37,298 nt of DNA from Promethearchaeota archaeon (GCA_016839765.1 JAEOTP010000028.1:1-37298); one strand, 5' to 3'; positions 1 through 30,164 are shown, numbered from the stretch's first letter. Numbers and translations: made by a program. The notes: generated from the sequence alone by a model not told the origin.

Positions 1-113
1 CTCATAGAATTAGGATTTGATTGATTTCAATCATTGATTTTTCATAATCATTTTAATTAATTTTATTATCTTTTATTAAATTAAGTACATTTAAGTAAAA
101 TAGGAGATCACAA

Positions 114-2756
114 TTGATATTAAAGATATTTATAATAGGTCCAGGTGGAATACCTTGTTATTCAAAGAATTTTTTTGAGCAAATTGATATTGAGGACAGT
201 ATTATTAGTGGATTTCTCACTGGAATTAGCCATTTCGCCAAAGAAATTAAAGGAGGAGAGATTAAGGCTCTAATCTTTAAAAATTTTAATTTTATATATT
301 CGTATTCGATTGAGTTTAATTGTATTTTTGTTATTGTTATAGATAAAGATGATTTAGAAGAAGACGCTAGATTGAAAGTTGAATTAATGAAAAGTGAATT
401 TGTTAAAAGATATCAACAATATTTAAAAAACTGGACAGGGAATGTTAGTGTCTTTGAAAGTTTTGATGACTTTATTGAGAAAAACATTTTTATTCCTCCT
501 AAAATAATATTAACTGGAGAAAATGGTGTAGGAAAAACCACTATCATGGATCTATTTCCTGGTGAAACAATTATAGAGTTAGATGATTATTCAAATGAAA
601 TTATCCAAAAGCCGATTGACTTTATTGATTTTGAAGAAATTAAACAGTGTATTATAAGAGAAATTGATTTAGAAGAATTAGTAAATAATACAAATAATTA
701 TAAAGATCTGTTAAATTCTGCAGATATCGTATTAATTGTAACAAATTCGGGAGCAAGTAATTTAGGGAGAACTCAAAAGCTAGCTTCCTTATTAAAACCT
801 AAAGTTCATAAATCAGATTTCTATATTATCGCAAACTTTCAAGATTTAAAAGACACTGCATTTGAGCCGGAAAAAATTGAAGAAATGTTTGATATAAAGA
901 CATTTGGCTTCTCTGCAAATAAAAAAGAATCTAAAAACCAAATAAGTTTTATTCTAAAGGAAATATTGCAGACTTCTATTTTACTTAAACAAGAAAAGAG
1001 ACATTTCATTGCCGAAGAAAAAGTAACTGCAATCAATGCTGAGGAAAAGGCAGGGATTGAGCAACCAGTAGAAAAATTTGAGGTAGACGTGGATTATGCT
1101 GATATTTGGAATCAAATAGAAGAAGCAAGAATGCTAGAAAAACAAGGAGAACATCTTGCATCTGCTGAAAAATTTTCTAGTGCGGCATCTCAGTTTAAAA
1201 ATCTGTGTTCAGATATAATAGATAATCAAGATAGAGAAGAATTAAATGCAATATATTATCTTTGCAAAGCATGGGAGTGTATGGAATTTGCTGAGGAATA
1301 TAATGATTCCAATAAGTTCACAGAAGCTGTGGAGCTATTTGATAAGGCTAGTGAGCACTTTGTTAATAATAAATCGAAGTTATTAGCCTTAGGAAATTCT
1401 GCTTTTTGCCAAGCTTTAGAACTAGGTTCTAAATTTGATAAGACAAGTGAAACATCAATTAAAGCAGAATATTACCCAAAAATTAAGATGATGCTCAGAA
1501 ATGCAGCTAATTTATATAGAAAAGGTGGATTTGAAAATGAAGCTGACTGGGCTTTAGCAACTTCAACTCATTTTGATGCAACGTGGCATATAATAAGAGC
1601 AGATGAAGAATTAAATCTTAATGAAAAGAAAGAACTATTAGAAATTGGTTCTGGCTTATTTAAATCTGCAGCACAATTATTTGGAAAAGCGGGATATAAA
1701 GATAAAGAAAAAGAAGTTTTAGATCGCTTAGACTTAGTAAAAAAAGAAGAAAAAATAATTGTATCAGCACTTAATACGATTAGAGAGCCGTTAATCTCCA
1801 AAGACACGCTGGATATTTTAACTCCTTCAATTCCCCAAAAAGATGAAGTTAAGAAAGTCAAAGAAAAAAGAACTAAAGAACAGAAATATAAATTAATCTA
1901 TAAGGATTTACTTAAAAAATACCCCAAAATTCAAAAAAGAGAATTTAGAGTCGGTGTTGCTCAAATAGGAGTGTCAAGTTCAGGAGATCTCATGAAAGAA
2001 TTTTATGAAGAAAAGGATTCTGGGTTATTAGGACTTCGGGAAGAAAAAGTTGAAATAATATTAGATAAAGTTAGAAATATGATTGAAAATGCTCATAATA
2101 ATGAAGTTAACATTCTCATATTTCCAGAAATATCCATAGATCTCAATTATGGTCACTTTTTAGAAGAAATATCAAATTTAGCAAAATCATTTGAGATGTT
2201 TATTATTCCTGGCTCATTTCACAATCTAGAAACGAAACAAAATATTAGTGTTGTAATTGGACCAGATGGAATTCTTTGGGAACAAGAAAAACATATTCCC
2301 GCAATTATACATTTTGGGGATAAAAAATTTGAAGAAGGAATAAAATTAGATGCATTTCCTAGACAAACTTTTGTTTGTAATACTGAGTTTGGGAGAATTG
2401 CCATAATAATATGCCGAGATTTTCTTGATATGGATTTACGTGTAGAATTAAAAAATTTCGAACCTCCAATAGACCTTATCTTCAACCCTGCATTCACTCC
2501 AGTTACAGAAGATTTCAAAGCAGCACATTTTGATGCCCGAAGATCAATTTATGCTTATTGTTTTTTTGTAAATATTGCTGAATTCGGTAATTCATTAATT
2601 TATACACCAGAAAAGGAACGAACCGAAAGAATTATCCCTCCAAAAGAAGAAAACCTAATTTACAAGGATATTGATCTGTTCAAACTTCGTTCAGAACGTA
2701 AGAAATGGGAAAAAGAAAAGAAAAAAAAGCGTCAATTTATCCAAAGTACACGATAA
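114..2756 (+). CDS. Multidomain protein: longin, degenerate small GTPase, TPR/SNAP-like helical region, nitrilase (carbon-nitrogen hydrolase)
   Basis: N-terminus ILKIFIIGPGGIPCYS..IISGFLTGISHFAKEI is longin-like. P-loop GENGVGKT; G4-like ANFQD; G5-like FSA. Ala-rich helices follow. C-terminal FRVGVAQ, FPE672, QEK726H and IC767RD form the nitrilase Glu-Lys-Cys triad. TTG start with AGGAG upstream. Confidence 0.85.
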   Translation: MILKIFIIGPGGIPCYSKNFFEQIDIEDSIISGFLTGISHFAKEIKGGEIKALIFKNFNFIYSYSIEFNCIFVIVIDKDDLEEDARLKVELMKSEFVKRYQQYLKNWTGNVSVFESFDDFIEKNIFIPPKIILTGENGVGKTTIMDLFPGETIIELDDYSNEIIQKPIDFIDFEEIKQCIIREIDLEELVNNTNNYKDLLNSADIVLIVTNSGASNLGRTQKLASLLKPKVHKSDFYIIANFQDLKDTAFEPEKIEEMFDIKTFGFSANKKESKNQISFILKEILQTSILLKQEKRHFIAEEKVTAINAEEKAGIEQPVEKFEVDVDYADIWNQIEEARMLEKQGEHLASAEKFSSAASQFKNLCSDIIDNQDREELNAIYYLCKAWECMEFAEEYNDSNKFTEAVELFDKASEHFVNNKSKLLALGNSAFCQALELGSKFDKTSETSIKAEYYPKIKMMLRNAANLYRKGGFENEADWALATSTHFDATWHIIRADEELNLNEKKELLEIGSGLFKSAAQLFGKAGYKDKEKEVLDRLDLVKKEEKIIVSALNTIREPLISKDTLDILTPSIPQKDEVKKVKEKRTKEQKYKLIYKDLLKKYPKIQKREFRVGVAQIGVSSSGDLMKEFYEEKDSGLLGLREEKVEIILDKVRNMIENAHNNEVNILIFPEISIDLNYGHFLEEISNLAKSFEMFIIPGSFHNLETKQNISVVIGPDGILWEQEKHIPAIIHFGDKKFEEGIKLDAFPRQTFVCNTEFGRIAIIICRDFLDMDLRVELKNFEPPIDLIFNPAFTPVTEDFKAAHFDARRSIYAYCFFVNIAEFGNSLIYTPEKERTERIIPPKEENLIYKDIDLFKLRSERKKWEKEKKKKRQFIQSTR

Positions 2757-2916: not shown

Positions 2917-3177
2917 TTATAGTTGTCCTCCGACAACCCTTGCCCATAGTGATAATTTGTCATTTTCTTGAAGACCAAATTTATGTATTGCATCTTCAAT
3001 TGATATTGAATTGGGCAATTCTTTCTCATGAAGTACTAAAGTATATGAGCGTTGCTCTGCACTTATAATTCCCATATGCTTAATAACTATATCTATAATA
3101 CGTTCAATTAGATGATGTTCTTTAACATCTAACTTTATTAACTTACCGGTTCTCGTATCTTCAACGGATAATCTCAT
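2917..3177 (-). CDS. Ubiquitin-like (beta-grasp) protein with C-terminal GG plus a 2-residue extension
   Basis: 86 aa. MRLSVEDTRTGKLIKLDV resembles the ubiquitin N-terminal hairpin; GLQENDKLSLWARVVGG-QL resembles the ubiquitin C-terminus. Confidence 0.85.
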   Translation of the reverse strand: MRLSVEDTRTGKLIKLDVKEHHLIERIIDIVIKHMGIISAEQRSYTLVLHEKELPNSISIEDAIHKFGLQENDKLSLWARVVGGQL

Positions 3178-3303: not shown

Positions 3304-4344
3304 TTAATCTTTAGTTTTTTCAGGTTTTTTAAAACTTGCTTCAACCTCCTCCATTTCAAACGGTTTAGAAGGCTTAGATTTATCAATTGGCTCATTACAA
3401 GCCCAACAAGCATTTTCCATGGTAGATAAAGTGCGAGCACAGTTTTCACAATATAGAGCATCACAACCAGTGCAAATATACGTATTAAATCCCCCAACTC
3501 CTCCTTTACACACTAAGCATATCTTTTGTTCCTTATAATAAGTAACTTCTTCTTCAGTAATTTGAGCAGGTCTTTTTCTTATTCTAAATAAAGAATCTTC
3601 AATTTTAATTTCTTCTTTAGGTTTTTCTTTTATATGTTTCTCAGGTTCTTCTCTTAATCCCAAATATACAAACAAAAAACTACTCATAGCTCCTATTCTA
3701 ACTAAAACTAAAACTATACTAAATGTAAAACTATCAAGCATCCCAAAAACAAGAACAAGAAAAACTGATACTGATAAATAGACAAATTTTTTTCTAATTA
3801 CACCTTCAGATTTAATTCCTTTGTATATATATACCAATTCTGAAAAACCTAGAAGTATGAGAAAATTGAGTAAACCTAAAAAACTTGAGATAGTTGCTGG
3901 ATTGAGCCCTGCTTTATGAATAAAACCAGTTAGTGGCGGTTCTATAAATATTACGACACCTAATGGATTTAAAATTGTTCCAACCATGGTAAAGCCAATA
4001 TAAGCTAAATACGGAATTAAAATATACCATTTCTTTTTAGCTGCAATAAACTCTGCAGCAATATAAAATAGAAAAATACTAGCAATAGGAGCTGATAACC
4101 ACATTAAATATACATATAGGACCTTATTTATACTAATGGATGTCAACAACACAGAAAAGAATTCAATCACAATTGCCAACCAAGCTGTAGCTACAAATAT
4201 TTGACTTAAACTATAAAGGGTAAGAAGTCTAATTTTTAATTTTCTTGATTTATAGAAGAAATAAATTCCTAAACTATACCCAAATATAAGAATTCCAAAT
4301 GTTGATATACCAATAAGCCAATCTTCAGCTGAAAAGTTTACCAT
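3304..4344 (-). CDS. Seven-transmembrane protein with C-terminal C4C4 RING-like zinc finger (candidate membrane E3 ligase)
   Basis: About 7 hydrophobic segments in aa 1-230, then C-x2-C-x11-C-x2-C-x4-C-x2-C-x10-C-x2-C at aa 276-316. AGGTGA ribosome-binding site upstream. Confidence 0.75.
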   Translation of the reverse strand: MVNFSAEDWLIGISTFGILIFGYSLGIYFFYKSRKLKIRLLTLYSLSQIFVATAWLAIVIEFFSVLLTSISINKVLYVYLMWLSAPIASIFLFYIAAEFIAAKKKWYILIPYLAYIGFTMVGTILNPLGVVIFIEPPLTGFIHKAGLNPATISSFLGLLNFLILLGFSELVYIYKGIKSEGVIRKKFVYLSVSVFLVLVFGMLDSFTFSIVLVLVRIGAMSSFLFVYLGLREEPEKHIKEKPKEEIKIEDSLFRIRKRPAQITEEEVTYYKEQKICLVCKGGVGGFNTYICTGCDALYCENCARTLSTMENACWACNEPIDKSKPSKPFEMEEVEASFKKPEKTKD

Positions 4345-6529: not shown

Positions 6530-7594
6530 TTAATTATTCATCGAGGGAATTTTCTTTAATTCTATTAACTGTTTTGCGATATCATAAAATGCATTTTCGA
6601 CATTTTGTCCAGTTAAGGCAGAAATTTCAATATATTTAAGATTTAAGGCTTCTGCTAATTTTGTAGCCGTTGTATTTTTCACTTTTCTTTTAATTACTAA
6701 ATCAAGTTTATTTCCAAAAATAAATCCTACTATAGATATTTTATCACTAAGATGGCTTTTTATGTCTTTATACCAAGCTGAGATATTCTCAAAACTTTTT
6801 GGGTTAGTTAAATCATAAATCAAAATAATACCATTTATCCCTTGGTAAAAATGCTTTCTCATAGTTTGGAATTTACTCTGACCTGCTATATCCCATATAA
6901 TAAGTTCTACAAAGTCATTATCAACCTGAAAATTTTTATCGCTAATATTGGTTCCCATTGTAGGCACGTACACTCTACTAAAAGCGTTATCGGTAAATCT
7001 TAATATTGTTGATGTTTTTCCTACACCTGGATCTCCTACAACAGCTAATTTAAATTTATAGCTAGCTTCTATTCTTTCTTTTTCGATTGATTCTGGAAAT
7101 TCTTCTCCTGTAGTTAGGGATAGTTCTTTTTTTCTTAATTCTTCAATTAAATCAAGAACATTATTTCTTAATTGATTAATTTCTAAAAATATATCTTTAT
7201 CAATAGCGTCAGAGTTTTCTAATTCAATTATTTTTTTAGAAGTATTAGAAAATAAAGTTTCAAGATAGCTAATGTATTTATAAAAAATTACATCCTCAGC
7301 TTGTCTAAATAGAAAAGTAATTGCCGATCTAGCAGATTTTCCTCTTCTTTTATCGTCTTTTCTTTCTATATATTTTACAATTCCTTTCAGTTTAATAGAT
7401 GGAAATGGAAAAATGATTAAAGAATCAGGTGTGTATCCATAGCTACCAGAAAGTAGCGTAACAGCTTTAATACTTACTAACATATTTACATTTTCAGGAA
7501 GATCAGAAGGATAGCAATAAACTGGATTAGGACCAAGTTCATCATGTAGATCCGTATAAATTATTGCATGAATTAACTCTTTACGTGACATCAC
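6530..7594 (-). CDS. uDENN/longin domain fused to a Rab-like small GTPase
   Basis: N-terminal IIYTDLHDELGPNPVYCYP; GTPase motifs GDPGVGKT, YVPTMG, WDIAGQ, GNKLD, EISAL. Confidence 0.9.
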   Translation of the reverse strand: MMSRKELIHAIIYTDLHDELGPNPVYCYPSDLPENVNMLVSIKAVTLLSGSYGYTPDSLIIFPFPSIKLKGIVKYIERKDDKRRGKSARSAITFLFRQAEDVIFYKYISYLETLFSNTSKKIIELENSDAIDKDIFLEINQLRNNVLDLIEELRKKELSLTTGEEFPESIEKERIEASYKFKLAVVGDPGVGKTSTILRFTDNAFSRVYVPTMGTNISDKNFQVDNDFVELIIWDIAGQSKFQTMRKHFYQGINGIILIYDLTNPKSFENISAWYKDIKSHLSDKISIVGFIFGNKLDLVIKRKVKNTTATKLAEALNLKYIEISALTGQNVENAFYDIAKQLIELKKIPSMNN

Positions 7595-10834: not shown

Positions 10835-11869
10835 TTATTTAAATGTATTATAAAGTTTATTCGCTAAATCATTAAAAGCAGAATCAACGTTTTCACCCGT
10901 TAATGCGCTCGTTTCTATATAGCTGAGATCCTGAGTATTTGCTAATTCAATTGCTTTTTCGGCACTTATTTGTAATTCTTCAGTTAAATCCTTCTTATTT
11001 CCTACAATAAATCCAACTAAATCTGGACGATTTTTTAATTGATTCTTTACATCCAAATACCAATTAGATAAATTTTTAAAAGATTTTTCATTAGTTAAGT
11101 CAAAAACTAAAAGGATGGCATCAGATCCAAGATAAAACTGTTGCCTCATCGTTTCAAATTTAATTTGTCCCGCAATATCCCATAAAACTAATTGAACTGT
11201 TGACCCCTCGACCTTAAAAATCTTATCTGATACGTGGACGCCAAGAGTTGGAATGTAACTTCTTCTAAATGCATTATTAGTATATCTTAAAATTAGAGAG
11301 GTCTTTCCAACTCCAGGATCTCCTACAATAGCTATTTTAAATTTATAATCAACGAGACCAGCCTCTTTTACTTTTTGCTCAGGAAATTCTTTCGCCTGGA
11401 CTTTTTCTTTATTCTTTAATTCTTCTAATAGATTTGATAAATTTAATTCAAATTCTTCTAATGACTCGGAAAAAGTTTCTTTAGGAGCTTTTTTTTTTTC
11501 TAGGTTGATTATTTTTTGCGTAATTTCACCAAATGGAGGAGTAAGCTGATTCATATATTTATAGAAAATAACATCATCTATTTCCCGAAATAATAAGGCT
11601 ATGGCAGATTGACCTATGCCACCTCGTCTATTTGGATCATCCCACTTAATATATTTAATCAATCCTTTCAAGTTTAATGTTGGAAATGGGAGAACTACCA
11701 ATGATTGGGGTACAAGACCCTGCTCACCTGAAAGAACCGCGATGACTTTGATTACAATATGCATTACGTCATTTGGTGAATAATTTGTAGGAAGCCATAC
11801 TAGAGGATTTGGGCCGAGTTCATCATCAAGTTGCGCGTACAAAAGTACTGTAATAACTTCTTCTGTCAT
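10835..11869 (-). CDS. uDENN/longin domain fused to a Rab-like small GTPase (paralogue of 6530-7594)
   Basis: LLYAQLDDELGPNPLVWLP; GDPGVGKT, YIPTLG, WDIAGQ, GNKKD, ETSAL. Confidence 0.9.
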   Translation of the reverse strand: MTEEVITVLLYAQLDDELGPNPLVWLPTNYSPNDVMHIVIKVIAVLSGEQGLVPQSLVVLPFPTLNLKGLIKYIKWDDPNRRGGIGQSAIALLFREIDDVIFYKYMNQLTPPFGEITQKIINLEKKKAPKETFSESLEEFELNLSNLLEELKNKEKVQAKEFPEQKVKEAGLVDYKFKIAIVGDPGVGKTSLILRYTNNAFRRSYIPTLGVHVSDKIFKVEGSTVQLVLWDIAGQIKFETMRQQFYLGSDAILLVFDLTNEKSFKNLSNWYLDVKNQLKNRPDLVGFIVGNKKDLTEELQISAEKAIELANTQDLSYIETSALTGENVDSAFNDLANKLYNTFK

Positions 11870-19106: not shown

Positions 19107-20009
19107 ATGTTAGATTACAAACAAGAACAAAAGATTATAGAAATTGATAAGGTAAAAATTGGCGGCCAACCAGGAGAAAATTCAACAGTTATGATTGGTA
19201 CGGTTTTTTATGCTAAGCATTCTGCTTTATTAGATGAAAAGACTGGAAAAATAGACAAGGACCTTGTTGAGAAAGAATTGAATGAGTTTTCTGAAATAAT
19301 TGAAGATACTGGAATGCAAGGAATTATTGACGTTGTTGGAGCTTATTCAGAGGCTCTTATTAAAGAATGTGAGTTTGTTTCAGAAATTGTTGAATATCCT
19401 TTTCTGGTTGATGGGTTAAACGATGGTTCACGCATTCCAGCCATGGAAGGCTTGAAAGAGATTGGATTATTAGATAGAGCAATTTTAAACAGCATTGATG
19501 AAAATACTACTGAAGAAAGTTTAAATAAATTAAAAGAGATTGGAGTCAAAAATGCCGTGCTCTTAACTTTTGGCTCAAAATATATCTTTCCAAAACAGAA
19601 AATTGAATTTTTAAGGAATAAACTTATTCCTAAAGCTGAAAAAGCAGAGATAAAAAATTTCTTAGTGGATACTGCCGTTTTAGATTTACCTTCTATTGGG
19701 ATTAACGTTGAAACTACGCGACTAGTAAAAAGTGAACTTGGGTTACCAACTGGTTTTGCTCCTGCAAATGCAATTTATGGATGGAAATATGGTAAAAAGT
19801 TTGGAGAAACATCGAGATGTGGAGCAATTGCATCTATAATGTCTTATTGTGTAAATGGTGGAAGTGATTTTGTTTTGTTTGGTCCTATTAAATTTGCCAA
19901 ATGTATTGTGCCAGCGATTTCATTAATTTCAGGAATAAATTCCTATTATAGAAAAAGAATTTTAAGGAAGTCTATATCCGAGAAGACACCTTTAAAAAAG
20001 ATTTTTTAG
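19107..20009 (+). CDS. mtrH: Tetrahydromethanopterin S-methyltransferase subunit H family methyltransferase
   Basis: KIGGQPGE..TVMIGTVFY..H, RAILNSI, LVDTAV, LPTGFAPAN and DFVLFGPI motifs. Confidence 0.9.
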   Translation: MLDYKQEQKIIEIDKVKIGGQPGENSTVMIGTVFYAKHSALLDEKTGKIDKDLVEKELNEFSEIIEDTGMQGIIDVVGAYSEALIKECEFVSEIVEYPFLVDGLNDGSRIPAMEGLKEIGLLDRAILNSIDENTTEESLNKLKEIGVKNAVLLTFGSKYIFPKQKIEFLRNKLIPKAEKAEIKNFLVDTAVLDLPSIGINVETTRLVKSELGLPTGFAPANAIYGWKYGKKFGETSRCGAIASIMSYCVNGGSDFVLFGPIKFAKCIVPAISLISGINSYYRKRILRKSISEKTPLKKIF

Positions 20010-21505
20010 GCAATATATCTAATTAATAAATCTTTTGTGCGATTTAAGAAATTTGGTAAATTATTATTTATTTTATCTTTTTTAATTTCATCATCTAAAA
20101 GAAATAAGAGATACATTTCATACCTATAGACATTTATTTTTTTAAAGAGAATGGTGGAGTCAGCAACTTTAAATATAGCCTCACCTTCTTTTATGGCTTT
20201 ATATTTAGAAAAGATTTTGAATAAGATGGCAAACTGAGGTGCTGTTATTTCAAATACGTTTAATAATTCCTCTGTTTTAGGTATATTTGTTAAAGATACA
20301 GCTTCAGGTGTATAATAATCTGCCAGCACTAAACCATCACTGTTTAACATTAAAGTTAAATAAGTACCAGTTTCTCTTGAAAAATTCTCTAAATTATGAC
20401 CTATTAATTCCTTATTAGGACTTAGTTTTGAGATTCCAGAGGAGAAAGCTCTTAAAATTGAAAAGAGACGAAATATACTAGTTATATAAATTTCTGGTTT
20501 ATTATTCGAATCTATAATAATTAATTTTTCCTTAATTATTTTTAAATTATCATTTAGTTCTTTAGATTCAATAATATCAGGGTCTCCCTTCGATAAAATA
20601 TATATAATTGGAGTATCTTGCTTAAAACTTTTTAATACTTTAGTTATATTTTGAAGATATTCAAAGCTCTCTTCAAATCTATTTCTATTTCTAATATCAA
20701 TAAAATAAAATATTAAATCTGCTTCATACAAATAAATTTGAGCTCTTTTAAGATATTTTTCTCTGAGACTTAACTGACCTCCTAAATCCCATAAAAAAAT
20801 TGTTGTGCCAAGTGTTTCAATAGAACTCACTTGGGCTCCAAATGTTGGTTTCAATCCCATTAATTTAGAAAATTTTCTATCTACTGATAATAAATATGAG
20901 GTTTTACCCGAATCATCTAAACCTGCAAATATAATTTTCATTTTTCTCTGGGTTGTAATAGGCGTTGTAGGAGTTTCCTCAATCTTAAGAACTTTTTCTA
21001 AGAAATCTTTTAAGTGGTGCTCTATTTCATCTTGTGATTTAAAATTATCTATAATTTCTTTATCAAAAACTTGAAATAAATCCAAAATAATGTTTTTTAA
21101 CCTATTAATGTTATTATACAAAAAGCTCCTCTTATTCTCATCCACAAATAGAGAAAAAGATGTCGCTAAAGGCTCTTGGCTAAATTTTACATCTATAAAA
21201 TGAAAAAATGTCAGTGAAGTTAAATTGAAATCTGGAAATGGGATTATACCAAAATACTGAAATTTTTCAACATCCACTCTATTAAGTATAGTACTATCAC
21301 CGATTAATAAACTCAAATTTTTTATCGAAATTTGAGTATAATCTCTTAAATTTAAATCGAGAATTTCCTCATGCATAGTATCTTTTGTTTCAGATTTGTT
21401 TTGCTCACTAGGTTTTGGGAACATGTATATCGGCTCAGGACCTAATTTATCATATGCGCTGAATAGAATTCCTCTAACAATTGATGATTTAAGTATTTCT
21501 TCCAT
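20006..21505 (-). CDS. uDENN/longin, Arf/Rag-like small GTPase and roadblock-like fusion
   Basis: ILFSAYDKLGPEPIYMFP; GLDDSGKT, KPT, WDLGGQ, SKGD, TSI; C-terminal LMLNSDGLVLADY. Confidence 0.85.
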   Translation of the reverse strand: MEEILKSSIVRGILFSAYDKLGPEPIYMFPKPSEQNKSETKDTMHEEILDLNLRDYTQISIKNLSLLIGDSTILNRVDVEKFQYFGIIPFPDFNLTSLTFFHFIDVKFSQEPLATSFSLFVDENKRSFLYNNINRLKNIILDLFQVFDKEIIDNFKSQDEIEHHLKDFLEKVLKIEETPTTPITTQRKMKIIFAGLDDSGKTSYLLSVDRKFSKLMGLKPTFGAQVSSIETLGTTIFLWDLGGQLSLREKYLKRAQIYLYEADLIFYFIDIRNRNRFEESFEYLQNITKVLKSFKQDTPIIYILSKGDPDIIESKELNDNLKIIKEKLIIIDSNNKPEIYITSIFRLFSILRAFSSGISKLSPNKELIGHNLENFSRETGTYLTLMLNSDGLVLADYYTPEAVSLTNIPKTEELLNVFEITAPQFAILFKIFSKYKAIKEGEAIFKVADSTILFKKINVYRYEMYLLFLLDDEIKKDKINNNLPNFLNRTKDLLIRYIA

Positions 21506-28745: not shown

Positions 28746-30164
28746 ATGAGTGGTATAGAAAAACAGATCATAAAATCAGTAATTTTAAGTTTATTTGATG
28801 AAGATGGACCTACACCTAAAATATACTGGCCCCAAGATATAGAAGAATCTGCTCGCTTATTGATTGCAATGAAAACAATCAGTCTTTTAATGGGGGATGC
28901 GGTATATCAAAATGGAACTGAGATTGATGGAGTTAACTATTTTGGTATATTACCTTTTCCTGATTTAAAAATGAATGGATTAACCTATTTTTTTTTAATA
29001 TCTGATCCAAAAGCACGCGGAAATGCAACAGCAGCAACCATTACAGTTTTAATTGATGAGAATAACAGGGTTTTTTTTTATGAAAATATGAAATATCTTA
29101 GAATGATTATAGATAAAGCAGCTTCAAGAGTTCAAACTTCAAAAAGTTTCGATGAGAATAAACAAATTATGGAAGATTTAAGACAAGAATTATTTGAATT
29201 TACTAATGAATTAAAAGATCCATTATCAATAAAACGACAATTAAAAATACTTTTTGTTGGACTGGATAGAGCTGGTAAAACAAGCTTTTTACATGGTGTT
29301 AAGAAGCGGTATTCTGAAATTATAAAAATTCTCCCTACTAAGGGTGTTGTTAGAACAGAAGAAAAATTATTTGAAGAGCAAAACTCTCAAATATCAATCT
29401 GGGATTTGGGTGGACAGCAAAAATATCGAGAAAAATTTCTTGAACAGGGTAAAATATATCTTTATAATGTAGATCTATTATTTTATTTTATTGATATACA
29501 AGATTCAAAAAGAATTAAAGAAGTTATTGATTTATTTAAAAAAATCTTAAACTCATTAAAGGAATTAGATGAATTTCCACCAATAGTGATATGTGTAAAT
29601 AAATTTGACCCAGATTTGAAAAAATCTAAAGAGATTAGGAAGAATTTAAAAATCCTTGAAGAAGAAATAATAAAGTGTTCAAGCGATTTCTTTTTTAAAA
29701 TATTTCATACTTCTGTCTTTGATCACTGGTCTTTAATTTCAGCTTATTCTTATGGGCTCTCACAACTTAGCCCCAATCGTGAATTATTTGAAAATCAATT
29801 AAAATTCTTGGCTAATAAGACAAAATCAGATGCATTATTATTACTAAATGACAACGGAATTATTTTATCAAACTACTCAAACGAGAAATCAAAAATTTCT
29901 GAAAAGGTTTTTGAAATATCCGCACCTCACTTCCAAACTCTCTATAAAACATTTAAAGAATTTAAATTGCTAAAACAAGACTTTATTGTATCTTCAGGAA
30001 TAACAGATGAAGAGAGAAAGATCATTTTTAAAAAAATTGATATAGATAAACATAATTTATATTTACTTCTTTTTATGGAGAAATTTGAAGGAATCGAAAA
30101 GATAGAAAAGCAATTACCAAAATTTACTAAAAATGTAAAAGAATTAATCCAAACTTATATCTAA
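28746..30164 (+). CDS. uDENN/longin, Arf/Rag-like small GTPase and roadblock-like fusion (paralogue of 20006-21505)
   Basis: VILSLFDEDGPTPKIYWP, DPKARG; GLDRAGKT, LPT, WDLGGQ, NKFD, TSV; LLLNDNGIILSNY. Confidence 0.87.
   Translation: MSGIEKQIIKSVILSLFDEDGPTPKIYWPQDIEESARLLIAMKTISLLMGDAVYQNGTEIDGVNYFGILPFPDLKMNGLTYFFLISDPKARGNATAATITVLIDENNRVFFYENMKYLRMIIDKAASRVQTSKSFDENKQIMEDLRQELFEFTNELKDPLSIKRQLKILFVGLDRAGKTSFLHGVKKRYSEIIKILPTKGVVRTEEKLFEEQNSQISIWDLGGQQKYREKFLEQGKIYLYNVDLLFYFIDIQDSKRIKEVIDLFKKILNSLKELDEFPPIVICVNKFDPDLKKSKEIRKNLKILEEEIIKCSSDFFFKIFHTSVFDHWSLISAYSYGLSQLSPNRELFENQLKFLANKTKSDALLLLNDNGIILSNYSNEKSKISEKVFEISAPHFQTLYKTFKEFKLLKQDFIVSSGITDEERKIIFKKIDIDKHNLYLLLFMEKFEGIEKIEKQLPKFTKNVKELIQTYI

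Follow-up and report, generated by a model that had tools for sequence, protein, structure and literature searches.

The stretch of DNA analysed here, hereafter called the window, comprises 37,298 nucleotides from a Promethearchaeota archaeon (GCA_016839765.1 JAEOTP010000028.1:1-37298) and encodes near its start a protein of 880 residues, in which a longin domain, an Arf-like G-domain, TPR-like helices and a nitrilase follow one another in a single open reading frame (ORF). This fusion is a genuine and conserved protein that joins a sensor to an enzyme. Its front half belongs to a family of longin plus pseudo-GTPase proteins that heads a JAB-E1-E2 operon, and its back half goes back to a single acquisition of the 3' end of a TPR-nitrilase gene. 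The nitrilase itself is, as judged from sequence comparisons, a swappable output domain with intact catalytic residues, related to that of the reverse transcriptase (RT) system DRT1. Whether these parts make up a partner-activated signalling enzyme, i.e., a chimera of adaptor and output tied to an accessory ubiquitin system, is in our judgement about evenly balanced.

A genuine and conserved fusion

All four modules that the initial annotation had distinguished find their match, and the features of the gene are as follows (rmsd, root-mean-square deviation; pLDDT, predicted local distance difference test; dN/dS, ratio of non-synonymous to synonymous substitution rates):

102-106, plus strand: AGGAG, a ribosome-binding-like site ahead of the TTG start codon (sequence)
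114-2756, plus strand: four-module ORF, 880 residues, start codon TTG (35 homologues, 64-94% identical over at least 90% of its length)
114-491, plus strand: longin domain, residues 1-126 (VAMP7 longin, Z 14.9, rmsd 1.9)
492-989, plus strand: Arf-like G-domain with degenerate switch motifs, residues 127-292 (motif alignment, profile and structure matches)
990-1088, plus strand: acidic variable linker, residues 293-325, containing the fusion junction (mean identity 35%, pLDDT <50, dN/dS 0.4-0.6 against two species)
1089-1793, plus strand: TPR/SNAP-like helical solenoid, residues 326-560 (equivalent to the last repeats of the ~1276-residue TPR-nitrilase family)
1899-2753, plus strand: nitrilase-superfamily domain, residues 596-880 (Pfam, PADLOC, fold, alignment)

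Those of the 35 homologues that carry a name belong to Promethearchaeota or other Asgard archaea. The fusion is present in 22 of the 135 genomes of the Promethearchaeota family, a count that includes two truncated fusions at contig ends and one interrupted by a run of N. Contigs of the runs X3 and X4 span window positions 1-2303, and a contig of run X7, from another study, spans 1-2764, i.e., the whole gene, with 125 differences and no gaps. By the homologues, the genomes and the spanning contigs an assembly artefact is ruled out; the initial annotation had allowed for a fusion confined to this assembly or with unspanned junctions. Compared with two other species, dN/dS is 0.08-0.12 in each of the four domains and 0.2-0.6 in the linkers, so that purifying selection is strong and uniform over all domains (about 0.1).

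The longin domain (model residues 1-129) resembles those of VAMP7 (4afi_B, 117 aligned) and Sec22 (3egd_C, Z 14.3), and residues 329-556 form a confident run of long helices in the structure model. A separate model of residues 1-295 reaches pLDDT 82 and a predicted template modelling score (pTM) of 0.76. The nitrilase scores 27.1 bits against Pfam CN_hydrolase PF00795 (cut-off 23.2), and its fold was matched by Foldseek and VIA (2w1v, Z 17.6, rmsd 4.0, 218 aligned). The triad E672-K726-C767, initially described as intact, is encoded at 2127-2129, 2289-2291 and 2412-2414, and together with E741 (2334-2336) it is invariant in the 35 aligned fusions; the domain ends in a conserved FIQSTR (2736-2753). 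A promoter and terminator scan downstream of the gene gave nothing above chance, and the ESM Atlas returned only unnamed or generic clusters.

The front half and the accessory ubiquitin operon

The longin-G module lies directly upstream of the JAB gene in 57 of the 70 loci of this gene, in 45 of them as a stand-alone gene and in 12 as the fusion, 35-68 bp away. Both also co-occur across the family, in which related genomes are not independent: the module is present in 64 of the 68 genomes that carry JAB, and JAB in 64 of the 67 that carry the module. The JAB operon is found in 68 of the 135 genomes. At the fusion loci the usual gene order is Rab, fusion, JAB, E1 and E2, followed by convergent genes for a ubiquitin-like protein (Ubl) and a seven-transmembrane protein with a RING-like finger (7TM-RING). 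Operon proteins match Pfam JAB, ThiF and UQ_con above cut-off, and the Ubl was recognized by a weak ubiquitin match and its GG end. In the window the two last-named genes come next after the fusion, in an order that is the same in most fusion loci:

2917-3177, minus strand: Ubl of 86 residues with the end GG-QL, precursor form (weak alignment to ubiquitin through GG)
3304-4344, minus strand: multi-transmembrane protein with C-terminal RING-like finger, candidate E3 (co-oriented with the Ubl gene and upstream of it)

The finger of the latter matches zf-C3HC4_3 below cut-off (E 2.7e-5) and has weak RING matches in the PDB. The family of the window Ubl comes after E2 in 13 loci as well as in genome G000, where a JAB-E1-E2 trio on C33 is followed by a Ubl 87% identical to that of the window and the fusion is located on C95. 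Ubl paralogues in G000 follow the fusion (C95), the JAB-E1-E2 genes (C33) and a gene for a G-domain plus TPR (C76). Because the same genome carries two further E1/E2 loci, the JAB-E1-E2-Ubl set is regarded as an accessory system.

Bacterial Bil (ISG15-like) systems are anti-phage operons of Ubl, E1, E2 and JAB, and their compact accessory loci thus have all four kinds of component in common with the linked operon. Unlike in Bil, the linked E1 and E2 are closest in the PDB to eukaryotic UBA1 and UBC, and a RING-like protein and the longin-G gene are attached; PADLOC finds only generic JAB and E1-E2 matches in the linked operon. Asgard ubiquitin gene clusters are already known (PMC9192718) and likewise bring together Ubl, UBA-type E1, E2, JAB and a RING-like protein. 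The linked operon differs from these clusters as a patchily distributed accessory that is headed by a longin-pseudo-GTPase, with no ESCRT genes seen beside it.

Related loci were observed in several genomes. In G000:C33:148254-162903 (L133, L255) three tandem TPR-nitrilases of ~1276 residues stand head-to-head with JAB-E1-E2 and a convergent Ubl gene, and the longin-G lead gene, present at that spot in G116 and G119, is missing. G000:C76:9312-10812 encodes a pseudo-GTPase with TPR, lacking longin and nitrilase, and is followed by a convergent gene for a GG-ending Ubl, a layout shared by L234. Ubiquitin-type loci also occur at G000:C17:125945-132490 (three Ubl-like genes, E1, E2, JAB and a transmembrane RING protein) and G000:C23:9999-14028 (E2 and a 524-residue E1). 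Stand-alone longin-pseudo-GTPase genes often form two or three diverged tandem copies before JAB (G033:C36, G034:C347, G048:C54, G052:C3, G068:C32, G073:C41, G081:C58).

A G-domain with decayed switch motifs

The G-domain (residues 126-292) matches Arf1 (8rsq_A, Z 17.3, rmsd 2.7, 151 aligned), and a profile search returned Asgard ArfR (8oum, E 1.3e-8) plus Arl/Arf proteins. Motif G1 (GxxxxGK[ST]) is intact at 516-542, with G135, G140, K141 and T142 invariant across the fusions, and G5 is kept as SA. The motifs in between have decayed in all 37 fused and stand-alone members of the family: the switch-I Thr of G2 is missing and an acidic loop takes its place, the DxxG of G3 is replaced by an EIDL-type string (E-I-D/N-L) without Gly, and G4 reads NFQD (834-845), in which Asn and Asp are kept and Lys has become Phe. 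Outgroup longin-GTPases retain the canonical PT, WDxAGQ and NKQD. In proteins of the Ras family, loss of G2 and G3 removes the sensing of Mg and the gamma-phosphate. The decay is common to the stand-alone genes and was therefore not caused by the fusion.

Since G2 and G3 are lost and G4 reads NFQD, the domain is predicted to be a pseudo-GTPase in which switching between GTP and GDP is unlikely; some nucleotide binding is possible, given that G1, the Asn and Asp of G4, and G5 are kept. These same retained motifs and the complete small-GTPase fold would favour a true GTP/GDP switch that controls the amidase, which we nevertheless consider very improbable, as the motifs lost in 37 of 37 members are retained by related longin-GTPases. 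The initial annotation had placed the amidase under switch control, which in the GTP/GDP sense does not agree with the missing switch-I Thr and DxxG. In some stand-alone copies G1 reads GKKT or GKKS.

Longin-GTPase fusions and domain shuffling in Asgard archaea are already known (bioRxiv 2020.10.19.343400). The order of longin and then Arf-like G-domain is the same in the Rag/Arf-like longin-small GTPase fusions described there and in ArfR (bioRxiv 2024.02.28.582541; 8oum, 8oul), and a canonical fusion of this type is present in the source genome (C61). The protein of the window differs from them in having lost G2, G3 and the G4 Lys, in carrying TPR and an enzyme, and in being tied to the JAB-E1-E2-Ubl operon.

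Origin of the back half

Residues 326-880 correspond to the final 555 residues of ~1276-residue TPR-solenoid nitrilases, which often stand in tandem arrays, and the helical part shares 57-69% identity with the C-terminal repeats in most of these proteins. Back halves of 17 fusions form a single clade within the TPR-nitrilases (SH-aLRT 100), so that this fusion has a single origin. The TPR-less longin-G-nitrilases P0039 and P0040 go back independently to stand-alone longin-G genes, and this G-domain has acquired the nitrilase on at least two occasions. The longin-G tree leaves the front halves of the fusions unplaced as one clade or several. TPR-nitrilase arrays stand head-to-head with the ubiquitin operon in G000:C33, G116 and G119.

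The best structural matches of the helices are Bro1 domains, headed by Bro1/ALIX (3rau, 2xs1; Z 15.6, 229 aligned), and a TPR protein (Z 14.6, rmsd 3.6). The Bro1 match has an rmsd of 5.4 and lies within 1 Z of the generic TPR protein; the helices have no sequence match to PF03097 (Bro1), and none was found in the five genomes searched. On this structural likeness, kinship with Bro1 may serve as a lead only. A PADLOC match of the helices to CARF_HEPN (E 9e-5) was taken as a generic helical match. Typical TPR-nitrilase contigs also occur in bins titled Pacearchaeota and Nanopelagicaceae (L066, L073); L073 is probably mis-binned, because its gene order is the same as that of the Promethearchaeota locus L072.

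Kinship of the nitrilase

Housekeeping nitrilases (Nit1/Nit2/YafV, ureidopropionase, Lnt and NAD synthetase) have the fold and the E-K-C triad in common with the fused domain, which however is only 14-24% identical to them, sits on a separate branch and is nearly always fused to sensor-like domains. The Asgard family, its bacterial relatives, DRT1 and UG5 split at 100/97 from 26 housekeeping nitrilases, comprising E. coli YafV and Lnt and other bacterial and Asgard enzymes. In a tree of 145 rows the effector-type branch has an SH-aLRT of 89-92, and the Asgard family forms a long branch of its own that is not nested among the RT fusions. Approximately unbiased (AU) tests rejected grouping with YafV/Nit2-like (p 0.03) and with ureidopropionase-like (p 0.017) enzymes. 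A housekeeping amidase is rejected by the trees and AU tests, with a caveat for long branches. The best PADLOC matches are RTasNitrilase (3e-13), CARF-nitrilase (1e-12) and UG5 (2e-11), and in a PDB profile search DRT1 (9yfd) is the sole match over most of the domain, the similar score of Nit2 being confined to the first half. Nit2 and ureidopropionase head the lists of Foldseek and VIA, a ranking not used for kinship because the nitrilase loops of the model are weak and DRT1 is absent from those lists. The initial proposal that the nitrilase is closer to the effector nitrilases of DRT1, UG5 and CARF proteins than to Nit1/Nit2 has thus held up in PADLOC, trees and AU tests, and the grouping with housekeeping amidases set against it was not found.

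The nitrilases of DRT1 (UG1) and UG5/DRT11, as well as RT-associated and CARF-fused ones, are known as effectors (9yfd; PMC13275509, PMC13436386, PMC9226505). Both they and the fusion have a C-terminal nitrilase after helical repeats, on the same non-housekeeping branch, with catalytic residues intact and the extreme C-terminus conserved. In contrast to the DRT1/UG5 group, the fusion lacks RT and CARF, belongs to a long-stem family of its own with only remote sequence similarity, has a longin and a pseudo-GTPase as its front end, and stands among a ubiquitin operon and housekeeping genes, not in a defence island. A scan of the protein and of ten neighbouring ORFs gave no RT match. The nitrilase, on these comparisons, appears to work like a DRT-type effector domain yet is not a DRT.

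This kinship bears on the view that the fusion is a passenger, the adaptor serving the ubiquitin operon and the nitrilase being an uncoupled metabolic amidase. Parent genes adjoin in some genomes, the junction linker is disordered and variable, and Promethearchaeota shuffle these modules freely (bioRxiv 2020.10.19.343400). The fusion is nevertheless intact across genera at a dN/dS of about 0.1, this G-domain acquired the nitrilase repeatedly, the trees reject a YafV/Nit2-like or ureidopropionase-like grouping, and nearly all nitrilase copies are fused to sensor-like domains, all of which renders a passenger quite improbable.

The nitrilase as a swappable output domain

The nitrilase family is found in 104 of 301 Asgard genomes, in four of 30 families, with up to eight copies. 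Its further partners include unrelated TPR_12 arrays, Rab plus kinase, RING plus kinase, a STAND ATPase, NosD beta-helices and bacterial alpha/beta-hydrolase sensors, and across these architectures the domain is 42-77% identical down to the terminal FIQSTR. The output slot of the TPR scaffold in turn holds a nitrilase, TIR (six seen), a RING-like finger (11), a longin (four) or a phosphoesterase-like domain (one), counts that stem from a hand-picked, TIR-ranked set and not from a random sample. The bacterial alpha/beta-hydrolase sensor has such a slot as well, which in the 120 homologues compared holds a class III cyclase in 74 cases, LuxR in 20, a winged helix in six and the nitrilase in nine.

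A protein-directed amidase in the ubiquitin pathway, either an N-terminal deamidase like Nta1, the nitrilase-fold protein amidase of yeast, or an enzyme that attacks Ubl conjugates, the peptide being bound by TPR in either case, would fit the 12 loci in which the fusion is co-operonic with JAB-E1-E2, and the RING-like finger on the same TPR scaffold suggests binding of a protein substrate. Against it, the domain groups with DRT-type nitrilases, in a tree without an Nta1 sequence, and is almost unchanged on bacterial small-ligand sensors with no ubiquitin genes around; Nta1 was not among the matches of the profile and fold searches. We consider such an amidase improbable.

An anti-virus or conflict effector appears less remote, if still rather unlikely. 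Here longin-G and TPR would sense a viral or Ubl-tagged protein, whereupon the nitrilase would arrest the cell by destroying an essential amide metabolite, a mode of action also proposed for DRT1, and the role of the linked Ubl-E1-E2-JAB set would resemble that of the bacterial Bil systems. The PADLOC and PDB profile matches, distant relatives with LRR, HEAT, nSTAND3 and CARF, a TIR with its catalytic Glu in the same slot, and the patchy, multi-copy spread of the family and of the operon are in line with this. The protein, however, has no RT, CARF or STAND, its family lies outside the RT-fused clade, all domains are under uniform purifying selection, and bacterial members occupy cyclase/LuxR slots among ordinary genes. 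The neighbours (DUF998, Rab GTPases, a PhoU-like regulator, nitroreductase, MFS and PPDK) keep their synteny across genera, and no defence genes were seen among them. Of the effector wired to a eukaryote-like module suggested in the initial annotation, the regulated output enzyme is thus retained, whereas a defence role is disfavoured by the stable housekeeping synteny, the strong purifying selection and the lack of RT.

Several relatives deserve mention in their own right. TPR scaffolds ending in a TIR with catalytic Glu are encoded at L237:4440-7802 (G116:C66) and in L244, L245, L260, L261 and L267; the L237 gene has the ubiquitin operon and a TPR-nitrilase as neighbours, and L237:1-381 holds another TIR ORF. 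In L247, L249, L253, L276-L281, L283 and L284 the scaffold ends in a RING-like finger akin to the one encoded at window 3304-4344, and these may be TPR-RING E3 ligases, while in L274 (G030:C4) it ends in a metallophosphoesterase-like domain, with motifs assigned by eye. In P0122 (L228:1109-4381) the nitrilase is inserted in a STAND-type AAA_16 ATPase just past Walker A, and an alpha/beta hydrolase is C-terminal. Bacterial alpha/beta-hydrolase plus nitrilase proteins are P0154, P0157, P0159-P0161, P0391-P0398 and L286:7001-8761, their Atlas cluster being mostly Myxococcota. The effector-type branch also holds a tandem double-nitrilase family of ~600-640 residues (P0189, P0192, P0197-P0200, L147:3035-4912) and distant members fused to LRR, HEAT, nSTAND3 and CARF (P0218, P0222, P0225, P0242, P0253; P0186, P0220, P0229, P0233; P0216, P0250; P0268).

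Proposed mechanism and significance

If the protein is a partner-activated signalling enzyme, its G-domain would bind a nucleotide or phosphate ligand or only a protein partner, without cycling of the Ras/Arf type, and longin-G and TPR helices may dock the protein on a partner, or at a membrane site, on which the Ubl-conjugation machinery acts. Once docked or clustered, the nitrilase domains would oligomerise, the conserved C-terminal tail forming a lid on the active site, as in DRT1, for which an oligomer and lid mechanism is described (PMC13275509), and in other nitrilases. The nitrilase would then hydrolyse an amide or amine of one conserved small molecule, probably nucleotide- or cofactor-like, and presumably thereby link Ubl tagging to an output in signalling or stress.

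Several findings weigh against this proposal. JAB-E1-E2 is absent between fusion and Ubl in the window, and likewise in run X7 and on the contig of P0002, and no JAB lies within 6 kb at seven of the 22 fusion loci, some of which reach contig edges; the coupling of fusion and operon is for these reasons not obligatory. Most Asgard nitrilase copies have no ubiquitin genes nearby. The full-length model has a pTM of 0.35, so that the placement of domains relative to one another is unreliable, and the split of effector from housekeeping nitrilases joins two branches with long stems, because of which long-branch attraction is possible. Finally, TIR as an alternative output and the kinship with DRT1 suit immunity equally well.

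Beyond the single protein, one may tentatively envisage an undescribed Asgard pathway in which the accessory Ubl system, the longin-pseudo-GTPase adaptor and TPR receptors whose interchangeable output is a nitrilase, TIR, RING or phosphoesterase form an immune-like or stress circuit, and in which the nitrilase makes or breaks a new small-molecule messenger shared with DRT1-type effectors and bacterial sensors.

A literature search, to which most subscription papers were out of reach, returned no description of this architecture, of the nitrilase family or of an operon headed by a longin-pseudo-GTPase. It is an open question which substrate DRT1-type nitrilases use (PMC13275509), and for this the present family offers a compact, highly conserved and RT-free version, including bacterial forms of 560 residues; the bacterial alpha/beta-hydrolase plus nitrilase proteins provide a simple test bed. 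The fusion further represents a prokaryotic effector-type enzyme that was joined two or more times to a eukaryote-like longin-GTPase adaptor heading a ubiquitin operon, and a concrete case in which ubiquitin tagging, pseudo-GTPase scaffolding and receptor-like TPR proteins converge in the closest relatives of eukaryotes.

Other GTPase genes of the window

The window also encodes four canonical small GTPases of multi-domain type (6530-7594, 10835-11869, 20006-21505 and 28746-30164). Two are Rab-like with an N-terminal extension and two are Rag/Arf-like, and the protein at 28746-30164 has a weak match to folliculin.

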